From positions 1 through 12,983 of IMG/VR virus record IMGVR_UViG_2802429224_000017: 12,983 nucleotides of DNA; one strand, 5' to 3'. The DNA is from a virus. Lineage: Duplodnaviria; Heunggongvirae; Uroviricota; Caudoviricetes. A program made the translations under genes and the position numbers. Below, piece by piece: positions 1 through 12,983 of the stretch. Numbering within the stretch: the stretch's first letter is position 1; every line of letters starts with the position of its first letter. Under the pieces are notes generated by a model, which was not told the DNA's origin, ran no database searches, and saw only the letters and a program-made list of their open reading frames with translations.

Positions 1-260
1 TTTTTTTAGATTTTCGTGCGCTTGATCGGATATATGATTTTTGCGGTTTTTGTTCGTTTTTCGGTTTTCGGTGGTCGCTGGTCGCTGGTCTGGCAGCATA
101 GGATCATCCTTTTTCGAAAATCAATGCTTTTTTTTGGAAAGTGCTTAAAAATTATCGTGCTGGCTGAATCAATAACCAGCAAAGGGTATTAAGTGTGGGT
201 GCGTTGAGGATGCCTGACACATCAGAGATGGCGGGAGATTACTCCCCCGCCTAGTCACTC

Positions 261-416
261 TTACTCTCTAGATTCGTAGTCTACGAAAACAGCGACCTCC
301 GTCTGGCCGGTTCGGATTCGTACCTCGCAGAGGTCTTTCCTCATTACCAGCGCCATCGCAATGACGGTTAAACAGATGACGATCAGGGCGATTAACATCG
401 CCTTTTGCTGCTTCAT
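261..416 (-). CDS. hok: Hok/Gef-family type I toxin, 51 aa small membrane protein
   Basis: Translation MKQQKAMLIALIVICLTVIAMALVMRKDLCEVRIRTGQTEVAVFVDYESRE is near-identical in length and sequence pattern to E. coli HokD/RelF and Gef as I recall them; single hydrophobic helix then conserved CEVRIRTGQTEVA motif; SD AAGGAG about 9 nt upstream of ATG at 416. Confidence 0.85.
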   Translation of the reverse strand: MKQQKAMLIALIVICLTVIAMALVMRKDLCEVRIRTGQTEVAVFVDYESRE

Positions 417-473
417 AGCCTGCTTCTCCTTGCCTTTCGGCACGTAAGAGGCTAACCTGATGTTGTCATGCAT
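261..473 (-). CDS. mok: Mok-like in-frame N-terminally extended reading frame overlapping hok (70 aa)
   Basis: In-frame ATG 19 codons upstream of hok ATG (MHDNIRLASYVPKGKEKQA + Hok) with GAGG 8 nt upstream; mirrors the mok/hok arrangement of known hok loci where Mok is an in-frame extension coupling hok translation (recalled, not verified). Confidence 0.45.
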   Translation of the reverse strand: MHDNIRLASYVPKGKEKQAMKQQKAMLIALIVICLTVIAMALVMRKDLCEVRIRTGQTEVAVFVDYESRE

Positions 474-590
474 AGGGAGCCTCAGATTAATGTTAAGCGT
501 CTTGCCGGACGCATAATGTTAACTGGGGCTTTTCTCTATCTGCCTTTTGGTGTTCATGCCTGAGACAGATAGCCTCAAGCACCCGCAACA

Positions 591-618
591 ATTCTACAAA
601 AAATCATCTCAATTTCAA
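591..618 (-). promoter_or_regulatory. Sigma70-type promoter (TTGAAA-16 bp-TAGAAT) immediately downstream of Q stop, reading toward hok; probable hok mRNA promoter
   Basis: On minus strand -35 TTGAAA (plus coords 613-618), 16-bp spacer, -10 TAGAAT (591-596); predicted start about 584 places the RNA 5-prime end at a sequence complementary to the region just beyond the hok 3-prime hairpin. Confidence 0.5.
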
Positions 619-620
619 TT

Positions 621-1031
621 TTACTGTATTTCTGCAACCGACCTTCCGGATGAGCCGCGCCCAACATATCTGTCCATTTCCAGTCTGATATCAAGCATCA
701 TCAACATCCCATCAACTACCCCTTCAGCCTTTTGCAATAAACGTCCAACCCAGCAATCGGAACGCCCATGCTTCTTTGCTAGTGCCATGAACGTCATTCC
801 GAACACATAGTAATCAACCAGTAAGTCATGTAAATCTTTGTTGTTCTTATTCAGCCTGGACATGCACCCGCAAATGACCATTGCGTCATCATCACTACAT
901 TGCGGACGTGATTTAACCTTTGACGGAATCAACCCCTTAAATCCGGCAGCAATGGACGACCAAGTAACATCCTCGTGGTTATTTGCCACCCATGCCCCCC
1001 ACCGTTCTAAAACCATCTGAATATCACGCAT
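621..1031 (-). CDS. Small Q-like late antiterminator (Phage_antitermQ-type, QuuD-like), 136 aa
   Basis: N-terminus [35 protein letters not shown] and Cys-rich [13 protein letters not shown] core match my recollection of small Q-family antiterminators of E. coli cryptic prophages; position downstream of the replication genes fits Q. Not verified by search. Confidence 0.6.
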
Positions 1032-1288
1032 CAGCGCAGTACCTCCTGCACCAGTTTTTCAAACTTACCAACTTTGGTTTCCAGCTCTGCCACACAATCC
1101 ACCAGCTCATCCACTGCTTTTTGTGCGCGATGTTTTGCCTGCATCAGTTCCCTGAGCGCTGGCACCATATCCCGACGAATGGCATCTTTTGTTACACCTG
1201 ATTTTTCCAGTTGTTCCGCCTGTCGCAACATTTCCTGTGCCTGTTTACGTAATTGCTCAGGGGTAAAAGTCATTGTCTGGTTGCTCAA
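1031..1288 (-). CDS. Hypothetical small coiled-coil protein (85 aa; alternative start at 1273)
   Basis: ORF on same strand as flanking genes, start overlaps DnaB-like stop (ATGA) and stop overlaps Q start; charged, helix-rich sequence; no recognisable family. Confidence 0.45.
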
Positions 1289-2676
1289 AAGAAACGCTCC
1301 ATCTTACTGCTGTCAGTTCGTTTGTTGCTGTATCTGCGCGGCTGGGGCTGCTGCATTGGGGTGGAAAGAATCTGTGCGCTTTCCTGATCCACAGGCAGAA
1401 AATGTCCGTTATAAAAACGCCGATAAATCGTCCCCAGAGAACCGTTACGTTGTTTCGTGATATTGATTTCTGCGATGCCCCTGGCCTGCGTATCCGGGTT
1501 GTACACTTCATCCCTGTAAAGCATCAGAATGATGTCTGCATCCGCCTCTATTTCTCCGGAATTTTTCAGGTCTGAGTTCATGGGGCGTTTATTGGGTCTG
1601 AACTCCACACCGCGGGAGAGCTGGCTCAGCGCAATCAACGGAAAACCACCGGATTTTGCCAGGCCTTTAAGCCCCTTTGAGATTTCACCAACGGCAAGGT
1701 CATGACGCCCCGTGGTTCGGGTTTTTATCAGTCCGAGATAATCAACCACCACCAGCGCCGTTTCCGGATGTTTAATCAGGTGGTGTTTCGTTGTTGCGCA
1801 TATCTCGTCAATGGTCAGGTTCGCCTGGTCCACCATCCAGATATTGCGCCCGGTCATCCGCCCCACTCCTTGTGAGAAACGTGCCCAGTCTTCGTCTTCA
1901 AAGTGAGCGACAGATTTCAGGCGTGATACCGGCATTCCTCCAGCCGCAGATACCATGCGTTCACCAATCTGGATGTTCGCCATTTCCATTGTGAACAGAA
2001 GAACACCATGCCCCTGCTCAGTCACCTTGTCGATGATATCCAGCGCCAGTTCGGTTTTGCCCATTGACGGACGAGCCGCAATAAATACCAGGTCGCCGGG
2101 CTCCATGCCGCCTGTTTTTGCGTCCAGTTCATCAATACCGGTCATCAACGTTCTGGATTTTTCCAGTCCCTGATTCCGGCATTCAACACGCTCAACCACT
2201 TCCGGAAGCACATCATCAATATGTACCGGCTGAATAACGCCCTTTTCCGTCGACAATGAGGCCATCATGTTCTGCGCATCCTTCAGGGCATCTTCAGCCG
2301 CTTCACAGGTATGCGCATCACGTAATTTCTGCAGCGCCTCATTCAGCGTTTTTTCTGCATCGCGCAATGCGGCATTGCGACGCAACGCCGCAACATAGTG
2401 CTCCAGTGAAGACTTCACCCAGGTTTTACGCCCGGTATCAGTAATCACCGGAGCAAGTTCCGGCATCTCATTACACAACAGCACAGGATCAATCACACCT
2501 GAAACACGGGCCTGTCTGCAGATGCCTGTGTAGATATCCCGATACGCTCGTACAGAAAAAACGTCCGCTGGCAGTGTGGCCAGAATATCCAACACTTCAG
2601 GATCTGCCCCACGCAGAAAGAACGCGCCAATGACAGCGCCTTCAAGGTCATCGTTACGCCAGACTGGTGTTGTCAT
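1285..2676 (-). CDS. DnaB-like replicative DNA helicase (463 aa from ATG at 2676)
   Basis: Walker A GDLVFIAARPSMGKTELALDI, later LVVVDYLGLI and RecA-fold motifs typical of the DnaB family; SD GAGGTG upstream of ATG 2676, which overlaps the stop of the upstream loader gene. The track start at 2715 is probably too far upstream. Confidence 0.85.
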   Translation of the reverse strand: MTTPVWRNDDLEGAVIGAFFLRGADPEVLDILATLPADVFSVRAYRDIYTGICRQARVSGVIDPVLLCNEMPELAPVITDTGRKTWVKSSLEHYVAALRRNAALRDAEKTLNEALQKLRDAHTCEAAEDALKDAQNMMASLSTEKGVIQPVHIDDVLPEVVERVECRNQGLEKSRTLMTGIDELDAKTGGMEPGDLVFIAARPSMGKTELALDIIDKVTEQGHGVLLFTMEMANIQIGERMVSAAGGMPVSRLKSVAHFEDEDWARFSQGVGRMTGRNIWMVDQANLTIDEICATTKHHLIKHPETALVVVDYLGLIKTRTTGRHDLAVGEISKGLKGLAKSGGFPLIALSQLSRGVEFRPNKRPMNSDLKNSGEIEADADIILMLYRDEVYNPDTQARGIAEINITKQRNGSLGTIYRRFYNGHFLPVDQESAQILSTPMQQPQPRRYSNKRTDSSKMERFF

Positions 2677-3563
2677 GCAGCCACACCTCTGATATGTACA
2701 CGGTAGCTTTCCCAACCAAACACCAGGCAGTTACGCCCACCATCAGTAACGCGATCCACAATCCGTTCACCAATGGACTCCTTAAGCTGGTCAAACGTCA
2801 GATTGCTGATCAAAATTGTCGGTAAAACGCTTTCGTAACGTGCATTGATGATTTCCTGCAGGATGGTTATCTCTGTTGGCGTACCGAACTGCACACCAAC
2901 CTCATCGATGATGAGCAGGTCCAGCGATACAAAATGGTCAATAACTTCATCTTCAGTGCGTTCAGAATTGTGACGCCAGGTATTTTTCACAGCGCGGGTC
3001 AGTCGCATGACATCCGTAATTTCGACAGTCGCCAGGTGGTGGCGAATAATATTTTTTGCCATTGATACAGCCAGGTGATTTTTCCCGGTACCGCAATTGC
3101 CAATCATGATCATGCTGGTACCCGCAGCAAGACACTTCTCCCATGAACTGGCATAGCGCCGACAAGCCTCAAGATTTCTCTGTGCGTCAGCATTCACAGC
3201 CTGGTAGTTCTCAAACTCGCAGTCCTGGAAGCGGCGGGCAATACCAGCTCTGTCAAGTAATTCATGAACTTTCAGGATGCGTAACGCCTCCTGTACCTGA
3301 TCCAGTTCATTCGCAATGCAGATCGGGCAACCAGACACCCGTTTGATGGTTTCCCCACGAACATCTGGCCCTTTCAACACCAGACGTGTGTATTTCCCGT
3401 GTTTCTCACACTCAGCAGTTTCCTCGCTTGTCAGCCAGTGTTCACAGCGCCACGGACGCTTCCCGGCACGGGCAAACTGCATCTCCTCCTCCAGTTCCGC
3501 CCTGCGGTTGAGCAATTGCGCTTTGTCGTGTTGTGCGTAGTGTTTTTTTAACTGTTCAAACAT
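2673..3563 (-). CDS. DnaC/IstB-like AAA+ helicase loader with Cys-rich N-terminal region (296 aa)
   Basis: Walker A GNCGTGKNHLAVSMA and Walker B LLIIDEVG; N-terminal CEHW...CEKH...CPIC arrangement suggests a zinc-binding module; SD GAGGTGA 7 nt upstream of ATG. Confidence 0.8.
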   Translation of the reverse strand: MFEQLKKHYAQHDKAQLLNRRAELEEEMQFARAGKRPWRCEHWLTSEETAECEKHGKYTRLVLKGPDVRGETIKRVSGCPICIANELDQVQEALRILKVHELLDRAGIARRFQDCEFENYQAVNADAQRNLEACRRYASSWEKCLAAGTSMIMIGNCGTGKNHLAVSMAKNIIRHHLATVEITDVMRLTRAVKNTWRHNSERTEDEVIDHFVSLDLLIIDEVGVQFGTPTEITILQEIINARYESVLPTILISNLTFDQLKESIGERIVDRVTDGGRNCLVFGWESYRVHIRGVAA

Positions 3564-3582
3564 TGTTCATCACCTCGAAAAA

Positions 3583-4392
3583 TCACCAGTTGAAGTTCGT
3601 TGAACCGTAGTCCTGCTCACTGAATCCCGAGATCGGGAGGCCGGTAGTTCGCCTACCTCCAGGAGCGGCTGGCTGTTGCCAGGATTCCTCGAAATGGCGA
3701 TCGGGTCCAAAGAACGTCGCGGCCTGCTTCACGAACTGTGTGCCGGTATTTCCTGTAGCACGTACCCAGGCGGCATACCGCTTCACGCCATCAAGCATGG
3801 TCTCCGGTTTTATTCCCTCCCTGATACGGGCTTTCCAGGCTTTGAAGGCTGCTGACTTGGAATTGCCACCAGCACGTTTGGGATATTCCTGCCAGGCCTG
3901 TTCAAATTCCGGTGAATATTCCTGTCGGGCAGAACGCGCTGGTGCAGACGCGTCAGCGGATGCGCCAATAGTTGATTCATTGACTGGTTCTTTGACTGGT
4001 TCAAAAGAGTGACTGGTTCTGGGTGAATCTCCTGCACTACCCCCTGGTGCAACTCCTGCACCACCTGGTGAATTTGCTGCACTAGGTAGTGAATTATTTG
4101 CACTACCACCTGGTGAATCTTTTGCACCATCAAGACGAAGAAGATAAATATTGCTCGAGTTCCCTTTTTCACCTTTCCGGGAAACTTTTTTTACCAGTCC
4201 AGATTCACAAAGAGCCGTAATATGATTCATCACAGAACGTTTGCTAATCTCGCACTGATCAGCAATATGCTGATAACTGGGCCAACACTCGCCCTGATCG
4301 CTGGCATTATCAGCCAGCTTAATCAGAACCAGTTTTCGCAACGGATTTCCCACACGAATTTTCATCGCTTTCACCATCAGGTCCATGCTCAT
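3583..4392 (-). CDS. Phage replication initiator-like protein: N-terminal winged-HTH domain, Pro/Gly/Ser-rich linker, C-terminal domain (269 aa)
   Basis: N-terminus LRKLVLIKLADNASDQGECWPSYQHIADQCEISKRSVMNHITALCESGLV is a typical replication-protein winged HTH; gene lies immediately upstream of the DnaC-like and DnaB-like genes; the linker is encoded by iteron-like DNA repeats. Confidence 0.6.
   Translation of the reverse strand: MSMDLMVKAMKIRVGNPLRKLVLIKLADNASDQGECWPSYQHIADQCEISKRSVMNHITALCESGLVKKVSRKGEKGNSSNIYLLRLDGAKDSPGGSANNSLPSAANSPGGAGVAPGGSAGDSPRTSHSFEPVKEPVNESTIGASADASAPARSARQEYSPEFEQAWQEYPKRAGGNSKSAAFKAWKARIREGIKPETMLDGVKRYAAWVRATGNTGTQFVKQAATFFGPDRHFEESWQQPAAPGGRRTTGLPISGFSEQDYGSTNFNW
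3981..4130. repeat. Iteron-like direct repeats inside the initiator gene (candidate origin of replication)
   Basis: Five roughly 22-bp direct repeats with consensus TGGTGAAT-n4-TGCACTACC at about 4020, 4044, 4065, 4087 and 4109, preceded by three copies of TGACTGGTTC (3981, 3993, 4010). This resembles the lambda arrangement of ori iterons within gene O. Confidence 0.5.
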
Positions 4393-4613
4393 AACACACC
4401 TCCCAGGCGTTTAAACATTTTTCCGGACTGAAACGCCATCAACGGATAGCTAATGGTGTAGTTACGCCCCAGTAATTCACACACAACTTTCTGGCTTTCG
4501 GTGCTGACCAGGCAAACACGCAGAACGTAGCCGTTGCTGGTGGCGAACCACTGCCCCACACGGGGGCAACGGTTGTATCGGTGACACAGGGAATTAACGA
4601 TGCGACGAATCAT
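4389..4613 (-). CDS. Hypothetical small Cys-containing protein (74 aa from ATG at 4613)
   Basis: ORF translationally coupled at both ends (ATGA overlaps with the 220-aa gene upstream and the initiator gene downstream); no family recognised. Confidence 0.4.
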   Translation of the reverse strand: MIRRIVNSLCHRYNRCPRVGQWFATSNGYVLRVCLVSTESQKVVCELLGRNYTISYPLMAFQSGKMFKRLGGVL

Positions 4614-5272
4614 GGGCGCACCTCCCATTGATTACGGCGGAAAGCGGTGTGACTGAGACTGGTTTCAGCCTCATGAAATGCTTCAATACAGCTCTCGTAG
4701 TACCGCATTGTGCGCAGACTTAACCCAAGCTGAAGCATCATCAGGCCATCAAGGGTGATGTAATAACCACGCAGGGAGTCACCATAGATGTGATAAGTGC
4801 CCGGTATGAAATTGCGGGTAAAAAAATCGCGCGAGCAGTTCAGATACTCGATTTTGTCGACGATGTTCTGGTGCATGCGCTTGAAGTGGCAGGCAACATG
4901 CAGGGAGAAAATAACAGCTTTGCCGTTGACGACTTCGATTTTCAGGTATGGGGAAGTTGGGACTGTAGCCATGATGGCAGCCTCCGATAACAGTGAATTA
5001 CCTTCACCACCGGAAACGCCAATTTCGCTGGTGGTGAACTGAACGGGGTTGGCGTAACCGGCGTTATCGGAAACCGGCGCACCTTTCGGTGCCCCCGTCC
5101 AGCCCACCATAATTTGGGTGTGCGCAGACGCAGACGACAAAAAAGACGCTGGCGCGTCATATATCGCCGATAACATTTCCAGGACGCCAATCCCGGCACC
5201 CGCTTTATAAGGTGCAGGGACAGTGTAACGTCCCGAAATTGCAGAATCAATATTTAGGCTTGAAACATTCAT
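4610..5272 (-). CDS. Hypothetical protein (220 aa), Gly/Ala/Ser-rich N-terminal half
   Basis: Longest ORF in the interval, same strand as the operon, stop overlaps the next start; no recognisable motifs. Confidence 0.5.
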   Translation of the reverse strand: MNVSSLNIDSAISGRYTVPAPYKAGAGIGVLEMLSAIYDAPASFLSSASAHTQIMVGWTGAPKGAPVSDNAGYANPVQFTTSEIGVSGGEGNSLLSEAAIMATVPTSPYLKIEVVNGKAVIFSLHVACHFKRMHQNIVDKIEYLNCSRDFFTRNFIPGTYHIYGDSLRGYYITLDGLMMLQLGLSLRTMRYYESCIEAFHEAETSLSHTAFRRNQWEVRP

Positions 5273-5350
5273 ATGCTTACTGGTATTTTTATTGATGTTC
5301 TTGGATTCTTGGGCCTGCTTTATGCAGTTGCCTGTATCAACGTTGAGCGA

Positions 5351-5375
5351 GCCGGGTCACTACCCGGCTTTTTTT
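5351..5375 (+). terminator. Intrinsic terminator-like hairpin (GCCGGGT-CACT-ACCCGGC followed by T7) in plus-strand orientation
   Basis: Perfect 7-bp GC-rich stem at 5351-5368 followed directly by TTTTTTT (5369-5375) on the plus strand, abutting the Rha stop codon; on the minus strand the hairpin is preceded by an A-run, so it may act bidirectionally or end an antisense RNA. Confidence 0.45.
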
Positions 5376-6082
5376 CACCGCTGCCAACCAATAACCTGAA
5401 ATAACCCCATTTTCGAGTGATACCAGCGAGTCCCTCGCGGTTCTGCTTCCTCCATAACCCGATAAAAAGCAGCCATAAACGGTTCCACGGCAACAATTGC
5501 ACGACGCGACAACAATCCGTCCGGCGTCATGAACTCGTGGGTATCGGTAGGAATTTGATAGGCATTCACCAGATTGCGGCATTTATCATCTGACAAACCG
5601 GTTTTCGCTTTCAGTTGGCGATATCCGGCATAGCCCTCACGAATGGTGCCCTTTTTGATTTGCTCAACTGTTTCGGCAACGTGGCTGACTTTTTCTTCCA
5701 CCTGAGTGATCCGTTTCTGCTGACGAACAGCTTCAAGAGCCATCGCAGCAACCATTTCGATTTCGCTCATTGGCTTACGGATCTGTTCTTCCAGTTCGCG
5801 CCAGCGATCTACCAGGCGAGCAGTGAATTCAGGACAGAGCTGTGCGACGACAATGATGCTGTCGCGCTTACCTTGTTCTCCTTCAAACAGGTAATGCTCA
5901 TATTGAACTTTAAAACCTAAGTTATTGATTCTTTCGGAAACCTCAATTTGAGGAGACCGGACAACGCCACCTTTGGCTAATGTTTCAATAGTGCGTTTCA
6001 CATTGTCATGACGTTTACCCACCAGCTCTGCAATTTCAACGCTGGTCATGGATACTTTGCCGTTAAAAATTGCGGTGTTCAT
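5375..6082 (-). CDS. Phage regulatory protein, Rha family (235 aa)
   Basis: N-terminus VSMTSVEIAELVGKRHDNVKRTIETL matches the conserved Rha (Phage_pRha) signature; sits directly downstream of the cro-like gene; SD AGGAGA upstream, start overlaps cro-like stop. Confidence 0.8.
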   Translation of the reverse strand: MNTAIFNGKVSMTSVEIAELVGKRHDNVKRTIETLAKGGVVRSPQIEVSERINNLGFKVQYEHYLFEGEQGKRDSIIVVAQLCPEFTARLVDRWRELEEQIRKPMSEIEMVAAMALEAVRQQKRITQVEEKVSHVAETVEQIKKGTIREGYAGYRQLKAKTGLSDDKCRNLVNAYQIPTDTHEFMTPDGLLSRRAIVAVEPFMAAFYRVMEEAEPRGTRWYHSKMGLFQVIGWQR

Positions 6083-6369
6083 TGTTTATCTCCTGCGTGT
6101 ATTCCATCCGCTCTGTGTGGTGAACTTGGATTTAGGCTTTTGCGTAACAAGTTAGGAATTCCATCTTCAGGGTGAGGATAAAGATCTGGCCTTAAGCCAT
6201 GAGGCGTAACCTTCCATGCAACTACTTCACATACTCGTAAAACGAAACGAGCAGGAATTGTGCTTTTTGAAAACCACTGATTCACCGCTTGCGGCGTCAC
6301 ACCAAGATTTCGCGCTATGGCATTTTGCGCAATTAATGCACGAAGTTTGTCGTAATCATTTCCTTTCAT
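6079..6369 (-). CDS. Cro-like HTH regulator of the YdaS type (96 aa)
   Basis: NLGVTPQAVNQWFSKSTIP...GLRPD resembles YdaS/Cro-type small HTH proteins; divergently transcribed from the cI-like repressor gene across a 133-bp AT-rich intergenic region. Confidence 0.65.
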   Translation of the reverse strand: MKGNDYDKLRALIAQNAIARNLGVTPQAVNQWFSKSTIPARFVLRVCEVVAWKVTPHGLRPDLYPHPEDGIPNLLRKSLNPSSPHRADGIHAGDKQ

Positions 6370-6502
6370 AACAAAGCACCAATATTAACTTTATAAATCA
6401 AGAATACATCAAGTTTAAATTAACATGCAAGTTGCAAAAGGATCGAATACACTAAAATCAAGTAAAGATTTATCCTTGTAAAGAAACCCACAGGATTTGG
6501 TC
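6370..6502. promoter_or_regulatory. Immunity-region intergenic control region (divergent cI-like and cro-like promoters, candidate operators)
   Basis: AT-rich 133-bp spacer between divergent repressor genes; repeated ATCAAG(T) motifs at 6397, 6408 and 6457 and the palindrome TGCAAGTTGCA at 6428-6438; exact -10/-35 elements not assigned with confidence. Confidence 0.5.
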
Positions 6503-7192
6503 ATGAAGAACGTCAAAAACACGGAAAATCGAATAGCCGCGATGCTGAAAGCAAAAGGATGGACTCAGGCTCAACTGGCCCGCAAGTTAGGTGTGAGTGC
6601 GCAATCAGTGCAGTACTGGACAACAGGAAAAACATTTCCACGGAGTGATAAGCTCGCGCATTTATCAGAGATTAGCGGTTATCCACAATCCTGGTTCTTA
6701 GGTGAAGACACCTCACCAACCTTTTCCTCGCAAGAGAAACACCAGACAAGAACAGATAGCGTCGTGTTTAATGTCCTTGATGTTGAGTTTAGTTGCGGTG
6801 ATGGAACTCATGTCCGTGGTGACTTGATAGATGTAGTGCGCTCAATAGAACTTGATCCTGAATATGCCCGACGTCTTGTTGGAAATCGGGCATTCAAAAA
6901 TATAGAAATAGGTAACGCCAGAGGAGACAGTATGGCTCCCACAATCTCACCTGGCGACCTTCTTTTTCTTGATAAGACAGTAACTTATTTTGATGGCGAT
7001 GGTATTTATGCATTTTGTTTTGATGGAGAATGCTACGTGAAAAGGCTTCAAAAAATTGGAAGCAAAATCATGGTGTTATCTGATAACCCCAATTATCAAC
7101 CATGGAGCATCGAAAAAGAGGGGTTAGCTCTGCTTTATATCCAGTCTAAAGTGATCTCATCAGTACCATTCAACATAAACAGATTTGGTTAG
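6503..7192 (+). CDS. cI-like prophage repressor (N-terminal XRE-type HTH, C-terminal LexA/S24 autopeptidase domain), 229 aa
   Basis: HTH WTQAQLARKLGVSAQSVQYW; C-terminal GDSMAP (catalytic Ser) and CYVKRL (Lys) dyad typical of LexA/cI/UmuD; AGGA 6 nt upstream of ATG at 6503 (the track used TTG at 6497). Confidence 0.9.
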   Translation: MKNVKNTENRIAAMLKAKGWTQAQLARKLGVSAQSVQYWTTGKTFPRSDKLAHLSEISGYPQSWFLGEDTSPTFSSQEKHQTRTDSVVFNVLDVEFSCGDGTHVRGDLIDVVRSIELDPEYARRLVGNRAFKNIEIGNARGDSMAPTISPGDLLFLDKTVTYFDGDGIYAFCFDGECYVKRLQKIGSKIMVLSDNPNYQPWSIEKEGLALLYIQSKVISSVPFNINRFG

Positions 7193-7203
7193 TCTTTGAT
7201 TTT

Positions 7204-7226
7204 AACGGGCTTTGCCCGTTTTTTTT
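7204..7226 (+). terminator. Rho-independent terminator downstream of the repressor gene
   Basis: AACGGGC-TTT-GCCCGTT hairpin (7204-7220) followed by a run of 8 T, 12 nt after the repressor stop codon. Confidence 0.7.
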
Positions 7227-7256
7227 CTGCCTGAAATATACGATATCAATTTTTTC

Positions 7257-7285
7257 TTGACAGCCTATTTCCCAAAGCATAATAT
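7257..7285 (+). promoter_or_regulatory. Near-consensus sigma70 promoter (TTGACA-17 bp-TAATAT), pL-like early-left promoter
   Basis: TTGACA at 7257-7262, 17-bp spacer, TAATAT at 7280-7285; dyad ATCAAT-n7-TTGAT (7292-7308) overlaps the predicted start and is a candidate operator. Confidence 0.6.
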
Positions 7286-7338
7286 CGCACCATCAATTAT
7301 AACTTGATTTGATTCAATTTAAAATTGTTGGTGGATAT

Positions 7339-7887
7339 ATGAAGACACTAAAAGCAACTCCAGAAACAACTAATTTTATCAACTGCGGCTGTGTTACGCT
7401 TAAGGGCTTAGAACTTGATTCCTTTGCATTAAATATTGCAAATTTGCTAAGTGCTGTACGCACATTCCATCTTCTGGATTGTGCTCGCTCAAAGGAACTG
7501 GGCATTGAGGTAATGGAATTTATCCATGAATATGCTCTATCTGCTGCTTCTCCTGCACAACAAAAACAATCCTTCCCTGAAAGCTGGCTGGTTAACCTTC
7601 GCACCCAACGCGAAGCCTGCGGCTTAACAACCGCCGAACTCGCCAGGCTGCTCGCTCTTGATGAAGAAATCATCATCCAGTGGGAGAGCGGAGAGTATGA
7701 ACCAACCATCAGTATGCTTATCCCACTGGCAAATATTCTTGGCTGCGATCCGATGTGGCTGTTAACTGGTGAGGTTACTCCTCCGGAGCAACCAAAAAGT
7801 GAGGAGCAGCAACACCATGACGCATCTCAACAAGTTTGCTCCTTATCTCGCGAAGCTCTTCTACGGAAGAACCAATACCAATGGTGA
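7339..7887 (+). CDS. Two-domain protein: unknown N-terminal domain plus C-terminal XRE-family HTH (182 aa)
   Basis: C-terminal LTTAELARLLALDEEIIIQWESGEYEPTISMLIPLANILGCDPMWLL is an XRE-type HTH; N-terminal roughly 90 aa share a domain with the next gene; first gene after the pL-like promoter; GGTGGA upstream of ATG 7339. The C-terminal 37 codons overlap a minus-strand ORF with a good SD. Confidence 0.55.
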   Translation: MKTLKATPETTNFINCGCVTLKGLELDSFALNIANLLSAVRTFHLLDCARSKELGIEVMEFIHEYALSAASPAQQKQSFPESWLVNLRTQREACGLTTAELARLLALDEEIIIQWESGEYEPTISMLIPLANILGCDPMWLLTGEVTPPEQPKSEEQQHHDASQQVCSLSREALLRKNQYQW

Positions 7888-8015
7888 CATAATCGCCGCT
7901 TCGCCCCTCAAGGTACATGCGAACATTTTTATCAATCATTGCGGAAACAGTCTCAATATGAAAACACTTCTGAGACTCGCTATATAGCAGAACATATAAG
8001 TCAGCTGAGGAAGCC

Positions 8016-8381
8016 ATGAAAAAGTTCGAAAACATAACTGTTCTCCATGTTGATGACTTTGATTATACAAACCCGGACCTTCTCCCGGAGGTTGTAAAGG
8101 CAATAGATGTTGCCGATATAGTGATTAGAGGAAAGAGAATTGTCAAAAACAGGCTCGCATGCACTTCAGGAGCAATGACAGAAACAACCTCACAACAAGA
8201 TGATTATGAAGGCATTTGTCCGGAGCCTGATTCATTTGCGGTAAATGTTTATCATTTATTGCATGCAACACAGGTATTACATATGTCCAGTAATCACGAA
8301 ACAAAAGCACTTGGCAGCGAAATTCTGAATTTTGCATGTGAATATGCAAAAGCTGCTGCCGAAAAAGAATTAGCGCAATAA
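8016..8381 (+). CDS. Hypothetical protein (121 aa) whose C-terminal about 50 aa are paralogous to the N-terminal domain of the preceding HTH protein
   Basis: By-eye alignment DSFAVNVYHLLHATQVLHMSSNHETKALGSEILNFACEYAKAAA versus DSFALNIANLLSAVRTFHLLDCARSKELGIEVMEFIHEYALSAA (about 22 of 47 identical); SD GAGGAAG upstream. Confidence 0.55.
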   Translation: MKKFENITVLHVDDFDYTNPDLLPEVVKAIDVADIVIRGKRIVKNRLACTSGAMTETTSQQDDYEGICPEPDSFAVNVYHLLHATQVLHMSSNHETKALGSEILNFACEYAKAAAEKELAQ

Positions 8382-8577
8382 CAATAAATATTCCCTGAAT
8401 GTTTATTACGGTTTTATCGCCGGGGATTGTTGCAACCTTTATTCGCAGGAGATTATGTTATGACTTTCCTGAAACATAAGGCATCGTATAAAACTGCCTG
8501 CCTCATTGCACAACATGGAGATTCTTATCTTCATATAGCCAACCTGTATTTGCGCAAAGCATATGGGAGATAAATAA

Positions 8578-8766
8578 ATGAAAGAAAAACAACAGAATAT
8601 AACACATAAAAAAGTAAGAGTGTTGCTAACCATTGAAAATGGTGAAGTAATTTACTCAAAACATCTGCTGGATAATGAATTCGTTGGCTGCATGGATACA
8701 TTTCTGTGGATGGCAAAAAGAGCTGGCTACACGATTATTCCACCAGCAAAGGAGCAAATATTATGA
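8578..8766 (+). CDS. Hypothetical small protein (62 aa)
   Basis: GGGAGA 7 nt upstream of ATG; stop overlaps the start of the next gene (ATGA), indicating translational coupling. Confidence 0.45.
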   Translation: MKEKQQNITHKKVRVLLTIENGEVIYSKHLLDNEFVGCMDTFLWMAKRAGYTIIPPAKEQIL

Positions 8767-9344
8767 ATCATTCAGAGTTCCGACCAGAAGTAACGCCACA
8801 TGGCATAAAAATTGGTAATACAACCATTGATTATATTCAGGCCGTACAGCGGCTTAATGATGGCGAATTCGATAATCCATACTGGCACGGTTTAAGAATC
8901 ATGCAATGTCTTGCCGAAGCTGATGATGCCGGATTGCTGGGAAGATTTTCAGTCGATCTGAAGGTTGCTCAGTGGCGCTGGCTGTATGTGATGAAGTTTA
9001 TCAGTGAAGAGGAAGACAAGAACGGCACTATTGATATCCCTAACGATAACGGGACGACAGATCGCGCAGTTATTTACAAGGGGAAACATGGTTGCATAAG
9101 TATATACCCAGGACCACTTCGCATTGCCCTGCAAAACCATGTCGAATGGGGATTTATTGAAAAATATGGCGAAACTGAAGGCATGGGGCGAGTTCTGTTT
9201 CTATATCAAAAAATGCTCATTGCAGATCTTGATAATGGTTTCATTCTCTCTGCTATGGGGCGCGAAGGGCTTGAACTCCTTCTGGATAAAATGATTAACG
9301 ACCTGAATACTCATGGTATGCCAGAAGCGCCAGTGACACATTAA
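8763..9344 (+). CDS. Hypothetical protein (193 aa from ATG at 8763)
   Basis: AAGGAG 7-8 nt upstream of ATG 8763 (the track start at 8706 lacks an SD); ORF uninterrupted for 193 codons; no family recognised. Confidence 0.6.
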   Translation: MNHSEFRPEVTPHGIKIGNTTIDYIQAVQRLNDGEFDNPYWHGLRIMQCLAEADDAGLLGRFSVDLKVAQWRWLYVMKFISEEEDKNGTIDIPNDNGTTDRAVIYKGKHGCISIYPGPLRIALQNHVEWGFIEKYGETEGMGRVLFLYQKMLIADLDNGFILSAMGREGLELLLDKMINDLNTHGMPEAPVTH

Positions 9345-9520
9345 ATATTAAGAAGAAAATAACTCTTCCGTTTTTTACTAACCGTTTATATGAAAAGCAA
9401 CCGTGAATTAAACAGAGTAAAACTGATTTTAATCCTTGCCACAGTACTGACACTAACTGAAATCATTATTCTCTTTATTGCGCTGTCAGTCGGTTAAAAA
9501 TATCGGGATACCACAGACCA

Positions 9521-9709
9521 ATGAGACTGTATTTCACAATAGTAATTTTACTGGCAATTATCGCATGCATTTACGGATTACTTGTTCCGTTCCTTATATC
9601 CATGAAGGATACGATAGCAGTTATTTCTGGCTTTGCACTGGCGTTTCTGACCCCGCCCTGCATTTATGCCATTTACAAGGGTCTTTCTTTCACTAAGGAT
9701 AAAAGATGA
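9521..9709 (+). CDS. Small two-helix integral membrane protein (62 aa), translationally coupled to the SPFH lipoprotein gene
   Basis: Two hydrophobic stretches (FTIVILLAIIACIYGLLVPFLI and AVISGFALAFLTPPCIYAIY); stop TGA overlaps the ATG of the downstream gene (ATGA at 9706-9709). Confidence 0.45.
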   Translation: MRLYFTIVILLAIIACIYGLLVPFLISMKDTIAVISGFALAFLTPPCIYAIYKGLSFTKDKR

Positions 9710-10533
9710 AAAAAATCATTTTTGCTTTAGCCATTGTTCTGCCGACTATTGGCCTTGTCGGTTGCGATCGCGTTGAACCAGGTAATGTTGGCATCAAGGT
9801 AAATAAACTGGGCGACGACAAAGGCGTCGGTGAGGTGGTCGGTGTTGGTCGCTACTGGACTGGCTGGAATACTGAAGTTTATATCTTCCCCACCTTCAAA
9901 CAAATGAAGACCTACGATGAACCGTTCAGTTTCCAGATGAGTGACGGTACAACCATCGGCTATCACATTGGCGTAGCCTACAAAGTTGATCCATCCAAAG
10001 TTACCACGGTGTTTCAGACCTACCGCAAAGGCGTGGATGACATTACAGACACCGACCTGCGCCAGAAGATCGCCGACGCACTCAACCGACTGGCCAGCAA
10101 AATGACCACTGACAAATTTATCGACGGCGGCAAGTCTGAGCTGCTGGATGAAGCTCTTAAAGACATTCAGGCAGAGATGACACCTATCGGTATTCAGGTA
10201 ATGAGCCTCTCATATGTGGGTAAGCCGGAGTACCCGCCTACTGTTATCGACAGCATTAATGCCAAAGTCACGGCGAACCAGAAAACACTGCAGCGCGAGC
10301 AGGAAGTTAAACAGCGCGAAGCGGAAGCCAACATGTTGCGCGCGGAAGCTGCCGGACAGGCTGATGCGATTCGCACAAAAGCCCAGGCTGAAGCCGACGC
10401 CATTCGTTTACGCGGTGAAGCTCTGCGCCAGAACCCCGGTGTTATGGAGCTGGAAGCCATCAATAAATGGAACGGCACACTGCCGCAATACATGACCAGC
10501 GGTGCTAATACACCATTTATCCAGGTTAAATAA
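9706..10533 (+). CDS. SPFH/band-7 (stomatin-prohibitin-flotillin-HflKC) domain lipoprotein, predicted inner-membrane anchored (275 aa)
   Basis: Signal peptide with lipobox LVGC (Cys20) followed by Asp at +2; central SPFH-like core and C-terminal Ala/Glu/Arg-rich coiled coil (REQEVKQREAEANMLRAEAAGQADAIRTKAQAEADAIRLRGEALRQ) characteristic of band-7 proteins. Confidence 0.8.
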   Translation: MKKIIFALAIVLPTIGLVGCDRVEPGNVGIKVNKLGDDKGVGEVVGVGRYWTGWNTEVYIFPTFKQMKTYDEPFSFQMSDGTTIGYHIGVAYKVDPSKVTTVFQTYRKGVDDITDTDLRQKIADALNRLASKMTTDKFIDGGKSELLDEALKDIQAEMTPIGIQVMSLSYVGKPEYPPTVIDSINAKVTANQKTLQREQEVKQREAEANMLRAEAAGQADAIRTKAQAEADAIRLRGEALRQNPGVMELEAINKWNGTLPQYMTSGANTPFIQVK

Positions 10534-10573
10534 CTTATATGCCCGGCAGGCCGCCGGGCTAAGGGAAATGCAG

Positions 10574-10945
10574 ATGAACACCCAGAATACTCAACCGCAA
10601 ATAATGAACTATGACCCAAATCTGACGTCATGCGGACGCATGGCAAAACAAACCGTTCGATTAACTTTCGGACTATGGGAATACCGCGAAACATTCGAAG
10701 TCACTGTCGGCGGCAATCTGACCGGACTGGATGTTATCAGTTGCGCTATTGAAAGCCTGTACGCAACGCTACCTTATGAAGAAGTCCAGAATGAGCGCAC
10801 AGGGAGAACGGATATCATGGCTACCATTAATATTGGCGAACTGACATGCCAGGATGAAGACCTGTCCGGAGAGCTCTGGCTTGCCGGGATGCTTATCTCA
10901 GCAGAAATTATCAGTATTGAACCCGCTATAAACATACGGCTCTGA
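10574..10945 (+). CDS. Hypothetical protein (123 aa from ATG at 10574)
   Basis: AAGGGA 7 nt upstream of ATG 10574; the track start at 10502 would overlap the SPFH gene and a GC-rich hairpin; no family recognised. Confidence 0.5.
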   Translation: MNTQNTQPQIMNYDPNLTSCGRMAKQTVRLTFGLWEYRETFEVTVGGNLTGLDVISCAIESLYATLPYEEVQNERTGRTDIMATINIGELTCQDEDLSGELWLAGMLISAEIISIEPAINIRL

Positions 10946-10976
10946 AGTTCTCACTATTCAGAGGGCAGGAGAAAAA

Positions 10977-11219
10977 ATGTTCGCTTTGATTAATCAGGGA
11001 CAACTGTATACCGACAGTGCCGGTTACCCGGTAAAAATTATTCGCTGCATAAATAACACAGTGTTGTACAAAAGAATGGATGGGCGAACACAGTCGGTAA
11101 AAATAAACGATTTTAATGAACTGTTTGAACGACTCGATCACCAGGAATACCGACAAATTCTGGCAGAAACAGAACAGGAAACTCATCTGAAAAAATTACG
11201 GGCTATGAAAAGGAAATAA
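10977..11219 (+). CDS. Hypothetical small protein (80 aa)
   Basis: GGAG-containing SD (GGCAGGAGAAAAAATG) upstream; compact basic/acidic small protein typical of xis-proximal phage genes. Confidence 0.5.
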   Translation: MFALINQGQLYTDSAGYPVKIIRCINNTVLYKRMDGRTQSVKINDFNELFERLDHQEYRQILAETEQETHLKKLRAMKRK

Positions 11220-11222
11220 AGA

Positions 11223-11369
11223 ATGAACAAAGCGTTTGAGCTATGGGTACGCCAGCGTTACGGCAATCGCTATGACCTGACGCGAGATGTTGACGGTTTC
11301 TACTGCCGTGAAATTGTGAAACGAATGTTTGAAGTGTGGTGCCACTGCCGTGGGCTGAGTGTTGTGTGA
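11223..11369 (+). CDS. Hypothetical very small protein (48 aa), below the ORF-track length cutoff
   Basis: Manual translation from ATG 11223: MNKAFELWVRQRYGNRYDLTRDVDGFYCREIVKRMFEVWCHCRGLSVV, stop TGA 11367-11369; AAAGGAAA upstream; fills the gap between the flanking genes on the same strand. Confidence 0.3.
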   Translation: MNKAFELWVRQRYGNRYDLTRDVDGFYCREIVKRMFEVWCHCRGLSVV

Positions 11370-11377
11370 GGTAATGC

Positions 11378-11614
11378 ATGGGCAATGTGATTCAACTGGC
11401 TCCCAATGAATGGGTTTGTGAAAGCGTTCTTATCGCAATTACCGGGCTCAAACCAGGCACAATTCTCCGGGCCCGGAAAGAATGCTGGATGGTAGGAAGA
11501 GAGTATATTCACGTATCGCCTGACGGTAATCCAAAACCTTCCAGCGAATGTATGTATAACAGAAAAGCAATCGATGCCTGGGTCGCTTCAATGAAAAACA
11601 AACAACCCAGGTGA
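11378..11614 (+). CDS. xis: Excisionase-like protein (78 aa)
   Basis: Small protein immediately upstream of the integrase on the same strand; sequence consistent with the enterobacterial prophage excisionase-like family; GAGGT 7 nt upstream of ATG. Confidence 0.65.
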   Translation: MGNVIQLAPNEWVCESVLIAITGLKPGTILRARKECWMVGREYIHVSPDGNPKPSSECMYNRKAIDAWVASMKNKQPR

Positions 11615-11669
11615 TTTAATACCATGAAATATGTAAGCTCGTATCGCTCTTGGGCGTCTGGAGGTATCG

Positions 11670-12983
11670 ATGGATAAAGTCAAATATCCAACAGGCGTCG
11701 AAAACCACGGTGGCACATTACGCATCTGGTTTAATTTTAAAGGTAAACGTGTCAGGGAAAACCTTGGTGTCCCTGACACTGCCAAGAACAGGAAGATCGC
11801 CGGAGAGCTGCGGACATCTGTATGTTTTGCCATTCGTACAGGAAACTTTGATTACGCTGCGCAGTTCCCTGACTCTCCTAACCTCAGGGCTTTTGGGGTA
11901 AATAAAAAAGAAATTACGGTGAAAGAGCTTGAAGAAAAGTGGCTGGATCTGAAACGCATGGAAATCTCTGCAAATGCATTCAATCGCTATGAATCCGTTG
12001 CAAGAACGATGGTTCCGAAAATTGGAGGTAGCAGACTGGTGTCAACGGTGACCAAAGAGGAATTGCTGTATATCAGGAAAGATTTGCTGACCGGATATCA
12101 GAATTCAACGAAAGACAAAGCACCAGCAAGAGGACGGAGCGTCGTTACTGTAAATTATTATATGACGACAATCGCTGGAATGTTTCAGTTTGCTGCAGAT
12201 CACGGTTACTTAGAAGCAAATCCCTTCGAGGGAATTAAGCCTCTTAAAAGAGCCAGGGCAGAGCCAGATCCGCTAACTCGTGACGAATTTATTCGCCTGA
12301 TAGATGCTTGCCGGCATCAGCAGACAAAAAACCTGTGGTCATTGGCTGTGTACACAGGAATGCGTCATGGTGAACTGGTCTCCCTGGCCTGGGAAGATAT
12401 CGATCTGAAAGCAGGAACAATTACTATCAGGCGCAATTATACGAAACTCGGTGAGTTCACTCTACCTAAAACTGAAGCAAGTACAAACAGGGTTGTGCAT
12501 CTTATCCAGCCCGCTATCAGTGTCCTGAAAAATCAGGCTGAAATGACAAGACTGGGTAAGCAGCACCACATCAAGGTTCAACTACGTGAATATGGACGTT
12601 CAGTGAATCATGAATGTACTTTCGTATTTAACCCCCAGGTGGTTAGAAAAAGCAAACAGGTAGGTTTTATCTACAAGGTAGATTCCATTGGCGACTCATG
12701 GGAAACAGCCATTAAACGTGCAGGCATCAGGCATCGAAAGGCATACCAGTCACGACACACTTATGCGTGCTGGTCATTATCTGCCGGAGCAAATCCAAGC
12801 TTCATTGCCAGCCAGATGGGCCATGCAAGTGCCCAGATGGTGTTCAATGTATACGGAGCATGGATGACTGACAGCAATGCAGAACAGATCGCAATGCTGA
12901 ATCAGAAGCTGGCAGATTATGTCCCAATGATGTCCCATAGTCACCAAAGTGACACAAGAGGCCTATTAAAATCAGTGGGTTAG
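11670..12983 (+). CDS. int: Tyrosine-family site-specific integrase (437 aa)
   Basis: C-terminal catalytic region with conserved Arg (GMRHGE), His-x-x-Arg (SRHTYA) and Tyr nucleophile (VYGAW); GGAGGT SD; stop TAG is the last three bases of the window. Confidence 0.9.
   Translation: MDKVKYPTGVENHGGTLRIWFNFKGKRVRENLGVPDTAKNRKIAGELRTSVCFAIRTGNFDYAAQFPDSPNLRAFGVNKKEITVKELEEKWLDLKRMEISANAFNRYESVARTMVPKIGGSRLVSTVTKEELLYIRKDLLTGYQNSTKDKAPARGRSVVTVNYYMTTIAGMFQFAADHGYLEANPFEGIKPLKRARAEPDPLTRDEFIRLIDACRHQQTKNLWSLAVYTGMRHGELVSLAWEDIDLKAGTITIRRNYTKLGEFTLPKTEASTNRVVHLIQPAISVLKNQAEMTRLGKQHHIKVQLREYGRSVNHECTFVFNPQVVRKSKQVGFIYKVDSIGDSWETAIKRAGIRHRKAYQSRHTYACWSLSAGANPSFIASQMGHASAQMVFNVYGAWMTDSNAEQIAMLNQKLADYVPMMSHSHQSDTRGLLKSVG

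Follow-up and report, generated by a model that had tools for sequence, protein, structure and literature searches.

A phage gene pair coding for an SPFH-domain lipoprotein and a small two-helix membrane protein, a candidate membrane-scaffold module of the infection phase

The stretch of DNA analysed here (hereafter the window) is a viral record of 12,983 nucleotides from IMG/VR (IMGVR_UViG_2802429224_000017, positions 1 to 12,983; Caudoviricetes). It carries on its plus strand a gene for a 275-amino acid lipoprotein with an SPFH (Band_7) domain (9706-10533), directly preceded by a gene for a 62-amino acid membrane protein (9521-9709). We propose that the two proteins constitute a phage SPFH membrane-scaffold module with a membrane function in the infection phase, a reading to which we assign a probability of roughly 0.6. 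The region had been singled out in an earlier note, made from the letters alone, which grouped the pair with a 35-codon open reading frame (ORF) just upstream and saw in the module a possible modulator of the host protease FtsH analogous to lambda CIII, or else an exclusion or abortive-infection system. The SPFH gene is not new to databases, having been present there since the sequencing of phage phiP27: the protein is 100% identical to phiP27 L05 (tblastn), and the 62-amino acid gene is present in phiP27 as well, without annotation. What appears from the sequences to be new is an SPFH-partner operon on phages in which a lipid-anchored, exoplasmic SPFH protein would be combined with a minimal partner that is not of the NfeD type. 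The module is real and widespread, yet unexplained, phage biology. The earlier note knew of no characterised function for it, in agreement with the literature up to 2026: two genome papers noting phage SPFH genes term their role unclear (PMC13239085, 2026; PMC8540360, 2021), no functional study of this SPFH family was found, and searches for 'phiP27 L05' gave nothing relevant. Searches for SPFH together with defence, exclusion or prophage gave only genome-description remarks and a study of PM0222 from Pasteurella multocida (PMC9872710), which is the sole experimental paper found on a prophage HflK/C-like protein.

The SPFH protein was matched by Pfam Band_7 (PF01145) over residues 22-208 (E = 3e-31; 109.2 bits against a cut-off of 23.6) and by phrog_200, annotated 'lipoprotein' (2.7e-114). 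Codon-position and intactness counts were made on 80 close relatives from IMG/VR. Variable sites in the SPFH frame fall at codon positions 1/2/3 in the numbers 18/13/131, a pattern that reveals purifying selection on this frame. Close to the C-terminus lies a family-specific motif, K254-W255-N-G257-x-x-P260 (10465-10485, plus strand; alignments A1 and A4), whose form across the family is K-W-N/D-G-x-x-P; K254, W255, G257 and P260 are invariant in alignment A1, which includes MbpS of Staphylococcus phage K. Used as a search pattern, this motif retrieved more than 480 viral and 368 genomic relatives. Several GenBank records (AJ298298, LC5678xx, HQ728266, MK422455, OR352954, OK483342 and MG845684) label the SPFH gene as 'serine protease', 'putative transposase' or 'transferase'. 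Since Band_7 was the sole domain detected and no protease domain was seen, the serine protease identity was rejected and all three labels are considered to be propagated mis-annotations, a point of practical use because many database records wrongly call the gene 'serine protease' or 'transposase'.

The protein begins with MKKIIFALAIVLPTIGLVGC-DR. Its signal peptide and lipobox (9706-9768, plus strand) read MKK-IIFALAIVLPTIG-LVGC and agree with the pattern [LVI][ASTVI][GAS]C following an n/h-region; the lipobox residues are L17-V18-G19-C20 (Cys20 codon, 9763-9765), followed by Asp21 at +2 (9766-9768). The lipobox cysteine is invariant in alignments A1, A3 and A4, and Asp21 conforms to the Lol-avoidance rule for Enterobacteriaceae (Asp at +2). 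Among 113 close enterobacterial homologues the +2 residue is D in 98, Y in 10, E in 4 and W in 1. Tyr or Trp at +2 is also reported to cause inner-membrane retention, and Arg at +3 may modulate the strength of retention. From these features the SPFH protein is predicted to be retained in the inner membrane with its SPFH domain in the periplasm. The domain, the lipobox and the Asp at +2 had all been pointed out in the earlier note and were upheld. As a separate observation, four otherwise intact Klebsiella homologues (P0076, P0077, P0083 and P0084) have Phe, Tyr or Trp in place of Cys20, each through a single-base change of TGC; such repeated loss might reflect a cost of the lipoprotein to some hosts, or else sequencing noise.

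The AlphaFold2 model of the SPFH protein (predicted local distance difference test score, pLDDT, 77.7) has strands at 17-94, helices at 96-161, a strand at 163-175 and a helix at 178-242. It thus consists of a β-rich membrane-proximal part (17-94), an α/β part (96-175), the long helix of 65 residues (178-242; 10237-10431, plus strand) and, after it, a short helix and a low-confidence tail. In the model the long helix is the counterpart of the coiled-coil wall helix seen in SPFH cage subunits. Full-length matches were found by Foldseek in the PDB, the best being HflC/HflK (7vhq; 2e-13 and 4e-13), together with prohibitin, erlin, stomatin, flotillin and QmcA; by sequence, the sole solved relative at E < 1e-3 is HflK (E = 4e-4). 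According to the secondary structure of the model, the folded SPFH domain begins ~2-3 residues past the lipidated Cys20, with no tether, so the lipid anchor would pin the domain directly on the membrane, in the place where HflK/C have a transmembrane helix.

The 62-amino acid partner has two hydrophobic segments, as had been noted earlier, and its AlphaFold2 model, of low confidence (pLDDT 65), has helices at 2-26 and 31-59. It was matched by phrog_1130 'membrane protein' (2.5e-23), a family placed by PHROG in the category 'moron / host takeover'. Between the helices lies a conserved turn, P23-x-L-I-S-M-K-D-T31. The C-terminal tail is basic (KGLSFTKDKR, +3), there is an Arg at the N-terminus and the S-M-K-D of the turn is net-neutral; by the positive-inside rule, both termini are predicted to be cytoplasmic (N-in/C-in) and the turn periplasmic, near the membrane-proximal face of the SPFH domain. 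No Pfam domain was found in this protein at E ≤ 0.1, including NfeD (PF01957), for which the earlier note had proposed a check. A word-indexed search with the 62-amino acid protein returned close relatives only, and a partner alignment scan of genomes was unproductive, the partner being too poorly conserved for patterns. A side observation concerns the allelic history of the locus: when phiP27-type, P88 and P1-like copies are compared, the core of the mature SPFH protein shows 86-91% identity in DNA and 93% in protein, whereas a different allele supplies the signal peptide, the last 10 residues and the entire partner gene (boundaries at window positions ~9755 and ~10500), which indicates recombination breakpoints inside the SPFH gene.

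The two genes are translationally coupled. At the coupling site (9695-9709, plus strand), the partner stop codon TGA (9707-9709) overlaps the SPFH start codon ATG (9706-9708) within an ATGA (9706-9709), and a Shine-Dalgarno sequence AAGGA (9695-9699) lies nine bases upstream, within the end of the 62-amino acid gene. The partner ORF is intact and the ATGA overlap is kept in all 80 close relatives, so this part of the earlier description stands; overlaps of four or a few nucleotides were also found in P88, MY01, ST340, D14B and E174. The inclusion of the 35-amino acid hydrophobic ORF (9390-9497, plus strand) did not survive the same comparison. Neither a Shine-Dalgarno sequence nor a Pfam or PHROG match was found for it; 50 of the 80 close relatives keep it intact, while 29 have unrelated sequence in its place and one has ATG changed to ATA. 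The 29 replacements put a strong AGGAGG directly ahead of the 62-amino acid gene. Variable sites in the ORF are distributed 10/4/9 over the codon positions, without third-position bias, and it was found in none of the distant module copies. It is thereby ruled out as a third component, is doubtful and outside the conserved module, and, as far as the sequence goes, may be no gene at all.

Sequence comparison establishes the pair (PHROG 1130 plus PHROG 200) as a conserved, mobile unit. The hairpin gene lies immediately 5' of the SPFH gene, usually with a four-base overlap, as in the P2-like phage P88 (gp11/gp12); the pair occurs between dmt and ban in P1-like variants, and the two genes are adjacent in the N4-like phages MY01, S6 and QDWS595, a Klebsiella prophage (ST340), Pseudomonas phage D14B, Burkholderia phage E174 and Rhizobium phage LG08. 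Alcaligenes phages carry the pair as well. The partners from P88, Mydo, MY01, S6 and LG08 match phrog_1130 with values of 1e-9 to 1e-26, that from D14B with 5.5e-5, and a turn motif is common to the partners, P-x-[L/M]-[I/V]-S-x-x-[D/S]-[T/S]. Co-occurrence, which the earlier note had suggested surveying, was counted in 80 diverse IMG/VR viral contigs whose SPFH proteins are 42-56% identical to an Alcaligenes phage protein: an adjacent upstream small transmembrane ORF is present in 71 (67 with the motif and 4 with a variant of it), the partner is one gene removed in 2 and it is missing in 7. The arrangement, with a small multi-transmembrane partner gene adjacent and co-oriented, is that of an SPFH-partner operon. 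Both an SPFH profile match and conservation of the pair, on which the earlier note had staked its proposal, were thus found. In GTDB genomes the SPFH family occurs in Gamma-, Alpha- and Betaproteobacteria, Leptospira, Bacteroidota, Myxococcota and Deinococcus; an upstream partner is seen in Proteobacteria, Leptospira and single Flavobacterium and Entomospira contigs, but not in Bacteroidales.

Some individual arrangements deserve mention in their own right. In the rV5-like Proteus phage Mydo (gp155; L004, 1332-1496), a 54-amino acid soluble, charged ORF lies between the two genes and overlaps both. The same insertion is present in L242 and L247 and could be a lineage-specific third component of rV5-like phages. 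The crAss-like cr128_1, the haloarchaeal virus HRTV-8 and Enterococcus phage GVEsP-1 have a small membrane-protein gene 3' of the SPFH gene (L099 1997-2362, L094 2057-2191 and L098 2043-2246), and 'SPFH plus small transmembrane protein' may be a more general rule with varied gene order. In Shigella flexneri CP182556 (L252, 1250-1500) the partner gene is missing and the sequence is replaced ~60 nucleotides upstream of the SPFH start by what we take to resemble the end of an IS1 element, an arrangement in keeping with prophage decay.

Natural fusions tie the two proteins together most strongly. An exhaustive phmmer search yielded 3019 representatives at E ≤ 1e-3 and 228 at E ≤ 1e-30; the 150 best representatives include 128 full-length proteins, ~16 of which are in-frame hairpin-SPFH fusions. 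These keep the loop motif and (by regular expression or by eye) the lipobox Cys, and one of them (P0075, carried by a P1-like element) turned up in two independent samples. The order of parts is hairpin, cytoplasmic linker, former signal peptide and SPFH domain, which is topologically consistent with the arrangement proposed below. Taken with the translational coupling, the fusions argue for a physical complex at roughly equal stoichiometry. No NfeD or other domain was found by Pfam on the N-terminal extensions of eight representative fusion proteins and of P0075; with the corresponding blank on the 62-amino acid protein, an NfeD-type partner was rejected. On the P1-like contig that carries P0075 (JAPPYW010000018), a gene with a Pfam Tad2-like (anti-Thoeris) match lies ~0.7 kb downstream (L332, 4229-4804), a neighbour that places the module of this contig in an accessory or counter-defence region. 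The reference P1 record has no SPFH gene between dmt and ban, and only some P1-like variants carry the module; a lead from P1, that Plp/Upl might be the pair, was dropped, since Plp of the reference is a protein of 125 amino acids encoded on the other strand.

Relatives of the SPFH protein were found by tblastn in 737 phage records, with hosts including Staphylococcus (206), Pseudomonas (76), Enterococcus (53), Erwinia (48), Klebsiella (45), Escherichia (40), Burkholderia (30), Caulobacter (26), Halorubrum (25) and Salmonella (24). The records inspected belong to Schitoviridae, Vequintavirinae, Ounavirinae, Bruynoghevirus, Herelleviridae, Dolichocephalovirinae, Hafunaviridae and Crassvirales. 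A strictly lytic life cycle is established for most of them, including Schitoviridae, Vequintavirinae, Ounavirinae, Herelleviridae and the phiCbK-like phages. In the lytic groups the pair stands among non-structural genes, beside a gene for dUTPase, a nuclease or tRNA nucleotidyltransferase/poly(A) polymerase; the Kayvirus pair mbpV-mbpS is in the lysis region, between lysK and tgl. Distant SPFH homologues occur in haloarchaeal viruses, whose hosts, to our knowledge, have no FtsH. The module was also found in 571 of 5426 complete Escherichia coli genomes (about one in ten), with 240 plasmid places that are presumed to be P1-like phage-plasmids. Its distribution is that of a non-essential, patchy element.

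The position of the pair bears on when it would act. In the three temperate backbones examined it lies among early genes, neither beside the repressor gene nor as a late-operon moron: in P88 between cox and a replication gene, and in P1-like elements in the dmt-ban region, which in reference P1 contains C1 operators. If they behave like their counterparts in lambda, P2 and P1, these early regions would be under repressor control, for which reason a defence role in stable lysogens is not favoured. No match in PADLOC-DB v2 at E ≤ 0.1 was obtained for the SPFH protein, the 62-amino acid protein, the 35-amino acid ORF or two neighbouring proteins, and a known defence system was discarded on this basis. 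The lysogeny-centred, CIII-like option was likewise weakened, because lytic groups and haloarchaeal viruses carry the module or distant homologues of it, so that a part in the lysogeny decision cannot be its general function. The general function most likely serves lytic development or the first minutes of infection. We infer this timing from two things: the window genes lie 3' of the promoter-like site that follows the repressor gene, and lytic groups carry the module. MbpS has been detected by mass spectrometry in purified preparations of a lytic phage (PMC5618024), which indicates that it is made during lytic growth; its presence there is probably membrane carry-over.

The mechanism that we propose runs as follows. 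The 62-amino acid protein would insert in the inner membrane as an N-in/C-in hairpin with its conserved turn toward the periplasm, and the 275-amino acid protein would be exported, lipidated on Cys20 and held in the inner membrane by Asp at +2. With its SPFH domain starting right after the lipid anchor, the latter would lie flat on the periplasmic face and would be expected to oligomerise through the long C-terminal helix into a closed ring or cage, as HflK/HflC, prohibitin, erlin and stomatin do. The hairpin would join this ring at ~1:1 as a membrane-spanning fence, the lipoprotein being wall and cap, and the complex would amount to a split, minimal version of a transmembrane-anchored exoplasmic SPFH protein that fences an inner-membrane patch. 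It would be produced when the early operon fires, in lytic development or fresh infection rather than in the quiescent lysogen, and would serve to sequester or insulate a host inner-membrane machine, FtsH being the leading specific candidate, or the membrane itself. In its boldest form, which we consider speculative and rather unlikely, the proposal is that of a minimal, self-contained cage that many temperate and lytic phages install early on the outer face of the cytoplasmic membrane, where it captures a universal machine (FtsH or another) or walls off a patch. If true, phages would possess a widespread kind of host-takeover module that had gone unrecognised, and an SPFH microdomain scaffold would for the first time be seen in the service of a virus.

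Several observations weigh against the membrane-scaffold proposal. Ring formation, partner binding and localisation are postulated by homology, and the sequence relation of the SPFH protein to HflK/C is weak: the NCBIfam HflK/HflC equivalogs TIGR01932 and TIGR01933 gave 25.9 and 23.1 bits against cut-offs of 134.4 and 159.4, so that the protein is not assigned to either. In some members of the family the +2 residue is Glu, Ser, Thr or Asn, and these proteins might be sent to the outer membrane; as these residues are found in other lineages, localisation may differ outside Enterobacteriaceae. The partner is a low-complexity transmembrane sequence with only a short conserved motif, and two partner alleles that are 20% identical accompany SPFH proteins that are 93% identical, so that any specific interface between the two must be small. 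Homologues in Bacteroidota and in crAss-like, Felix-O1-like, Bruynoghevirus and Gram-positive phages lack this partner or have a different small neighbour. Promoter-like sites in the region are fewer than in shuffled sequences (9 versus 13.6), which leaves an internal promoter neither demonstrable nor excludable; an independent moron with its own promoter and terminator was rejected as a description of the pair, for only a weak 9/12 promoter-like match (9333-9360) precedes it and there is no terminator 3' of the gene, the GC hairpin after the SPFH stop (10541-10559) having no U-tract and z = -1.7. Lastly, PM0222, a putative member of the subfamily, is reported to be lysogen-expressed and present in outer-membrane vesicles (PMC9872710).

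Other explanations compete with ours for what the complex is for. The phage cage might modulate FtsH by capturing it, or competing for it, as HflK/C does, and thereby alter the turnover of CII-like regulators in temperate phages and, more generally, of membrane proteins, LpxC and sigma-32. HflK/HflC, which enclose FtsH, are the closest solved relatives by sequence and fold, the topology predicted from the sequence is exoplasmic as in HflK/C, unlike that of the cytoplasmic flotillins or QmcA, and the module sits in the operon where lambda carries cIII. However, strictly lytic groups are among its carriers, distant homologues occur in haloarchaeal viruses with hosts that, as said, seem to lack the protease, the equivalog scores are far under threshold, a single SPFH gene stands in for the K/C pair, and a lipid anchor takes the place of the transmembrane helix of the host proteins. 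The direction of any effect on CII is moreover unpredictable, loss of HflKC raising lysogeny in vivo. The idea itself is not new, as the HflK/C-FtsH-CII analogy had already been proposed for phage SPFH genes (PMC4936722, 2016; PMC8540360), and we hold it to be unlikely in this specific form; were FtsH the target, the module would represent a second phage strategy for that protease, structurally unrelated to lambda CIII. We find it equally improbable that the pair acts in superinfection exclusion during the lytic programme, preventing the genomes of later phages from crossing the inner membrane. The models here are T4 Imm (a small membrane protein) with Sp (periplasmic), and P22 SieA; the architecture of a small two-helix inner-membrane protein with a periplasm-facing one would suit, as would the non-essential and patchy occurrence, the early location in temperate and lytic phages alike and the 'moron / host takeover' category of PHROG 1130. 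Scans of both proteins against PHROG, on the other hand, gave no exclusion-annotated family (T4 Imm/Sp, P22 SieA, HK97 gp15 and others): the partner matched phrog_1130 only, and the SPFH protein phrog_200, two fragment families and a weak 'protease' family. With the PADLOC blank, homology to a known exclusion protein or model is absent from these scans; the position is unfit for lysogen protection, the very broad host range would need a universal target, and we know of no precedent for SPFH proteins in exclusion.

Lower still do we rate a role in membrane protection or lysis timing, in which the cage would steady the energised inner membrane against premature holin triggering or depolarising abortive-infection effectors or, in a variant, would provide a scaffold for exporting phage envelope proteins. 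In size and topology the 62-amino acid protein matches class II holins and antiholins. The Kayvirus pair mbpV-mbpS is located in the lysis region, a Sec/Tgl scaffold has been suggested for MbpS in a paper that terms its function unknown (PMC7150955), and bacterial SPFH proteins are reported to be tied to membrane-stress responses. The argument is one of analogy throughout, though, and the pair is far from lysis genes in the window, P88 and the N4-like and rV5-like phages, with no holin-family match in PHROG. The least probable of the explanations, in our estimation, is lysogenic conversion, whereby a lysogen-made lipoprotein would alter the envelope, outer-membrane vesicles or host interaction. 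It can invoke the precedent of PM0222, likened by description only (a prophage-encoded protein of 25-35 kDa that was detected in the lysogen and its outer-membrane vesicles and whose deletion attenuates virulence in mice; PMC9872710), and the kinship of the window phage with Shiga toxin (Stx) phages. Yet the module is common in phages known as lytic, which are unable to convert their hosts, it stands in an early operon where no promoter or terminator of its own is convincing, and Asp at +2 predicts the inner membrane rather than the outer membrane or vesicles.

Whichever function applies, SPFH proteins are universal membrane organisers whose functions in bacteria are still debated. The phage module is tractable: its partner is tiny, the fusions indicate how the parts fit, and lambdoid, P2-like, P1-like and N4-like carriers are at hand. 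It offers a simple system for asking what an SPFH cage encloses and why a virus wants one. If the purpose proved to be exclusion or membrane protection, a new class of mechanism would be added to those fields.

The window is the immunity and early-left arm of a lambdoid prophage, which sequence comparison assigns to the phiP27 type of Stx prophages: positions 9300-10600 are 97.7% identical to the Stx2e phage phiP27 and ~93% identical to a series of Stx2a/Stx2d phages. A cI-like repressor gene (S24/HTH; 6497-7192, plus strand) is followed by a terminator-like hairpin (7204-7220, plus strand) and by the top-scoring sigma-70-like site of a consensus scan, TTGACA-17-TAATAT (7257-7285, plus strand), which is predicted to be the likely pL-type promoter of the operon holding the module. 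The string of small genes 3' of this site includes the module and ends in xis, a DUF1233 excisionase gene (11378-11614, plus strand), and int, the integrase gene (from 11670); the early-left placement given in the earlier note is thus supported. On the minus strand are a cro-like gene (6079-6369) and, further along, replication genes (DnaB-like and IstB/DnaC-like) and Rha/Ash antirepressor-like genes. Immediately after the module, a DUF5406 ORF is listed with a GTG start at 10502 that overlaps the end of the SPFH gene (10502-10945, plus strand). The ATG at 10574, from which the DUF5406 match of 3.4e-22 was computed and which is preceded by AAGGGAAA and the GC hairpin mentioned above, is more likely to be the start. 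An antisense ORF (10194-10694, minus strand) and other overlapping ORFs were judged unsupported, the codon-position pattern fitting the plus frame, and an Rfam scan of 9390-10533 found no RNA family. Elsewhere in the window, Rfam matches on the minus strand included the sok antitoxin RNA (RF01794) at 411-584 (117.5 bits against a gathering score of 59), which suggests a hok/sok-type toxin-antitoxin locus beside the prophage replication genes. C4 antisense RNA at 5027-5114 (82.8 bits) and isrK at 5139-5215 (63.7 bits) were also matched on that strand, within or just upstream of an Ash/Rha antirepressor-like gene (4610-5272, minus strand); together these would amount to an antirepressor unit under RNA control, in the style of P1/P7, within a lambdoid prophage.

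Compared with known systems, the SPFH protein shares with HflK/HflC (PDB 7vhp, 7vhq, 7wi3 and 9cz2) the SPFH domain, the long wall helix, a C-terminal cap segment, an N-terminal anchor and, by prediction, the periplasmic side of the membrane. It differs in being encoded by one gene rather than a K/C pair of paralogues, in having a lipid anchor and a separate two-helix partner in place of an intrinsic transmembrane helix, and in being phage-encoded and much shorter (256 mature residues). The SPFH-NfeD operons (QmcA-YbbJ, PDB 8z5g; YqiK-YqiJ; FloA-NfeD) resemble the phage pair in their tight linkage to a small multi-transmembrane partner, co-transcription and fusions of both genes in some lineages, and QmcA is among the fold matches. 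The phage partner, however, is just a two-helix hairpin of 60-85 amino acids without the NfeD OB-fold, and the phage SPFH domain, predicted to be lipid-anchored and exoplasmic, contrasts with the cytoplasm-facing QmcA, YqiK and flotillins. With lambda CIII, a 54-amino acid cytoplasmic amphipathic peptide that is a competitive substrate and inhibitor of FtsH, the module has in common the early-left operon and the hypothesised target FtsH, while size, fold, compartment and distribution are all unlike. PM0222 is likewise an HflK/C-like SPFH protein of similar size from a lambda-like prophage, as far as a comparison by description goes, and differs in being present in outer-membrane vesicles, in being lysogen-expressed and in having been studied as a TLR1/2 agonist (PMC9872710). 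Both window proteins belong, with the pairs of P88, Mydo, MY01, S6 and LG08, to phiP27 L05/PHROG 200 and PHROG 1130, which are annotation bins without function. Finally, Kayvirus MbpS is a distant homologue (~23-25% identity) that retains the invariant Cys and the C-terminal KW-G-P motif and whose gene is preceded by a translationally coupled one for a small membrane protein, MbpV; the differences are that MbpV has a single transmembrane segment and belongs to PHROG 3667, that the host is Gram-positive and that the genes are located in the lysis region.

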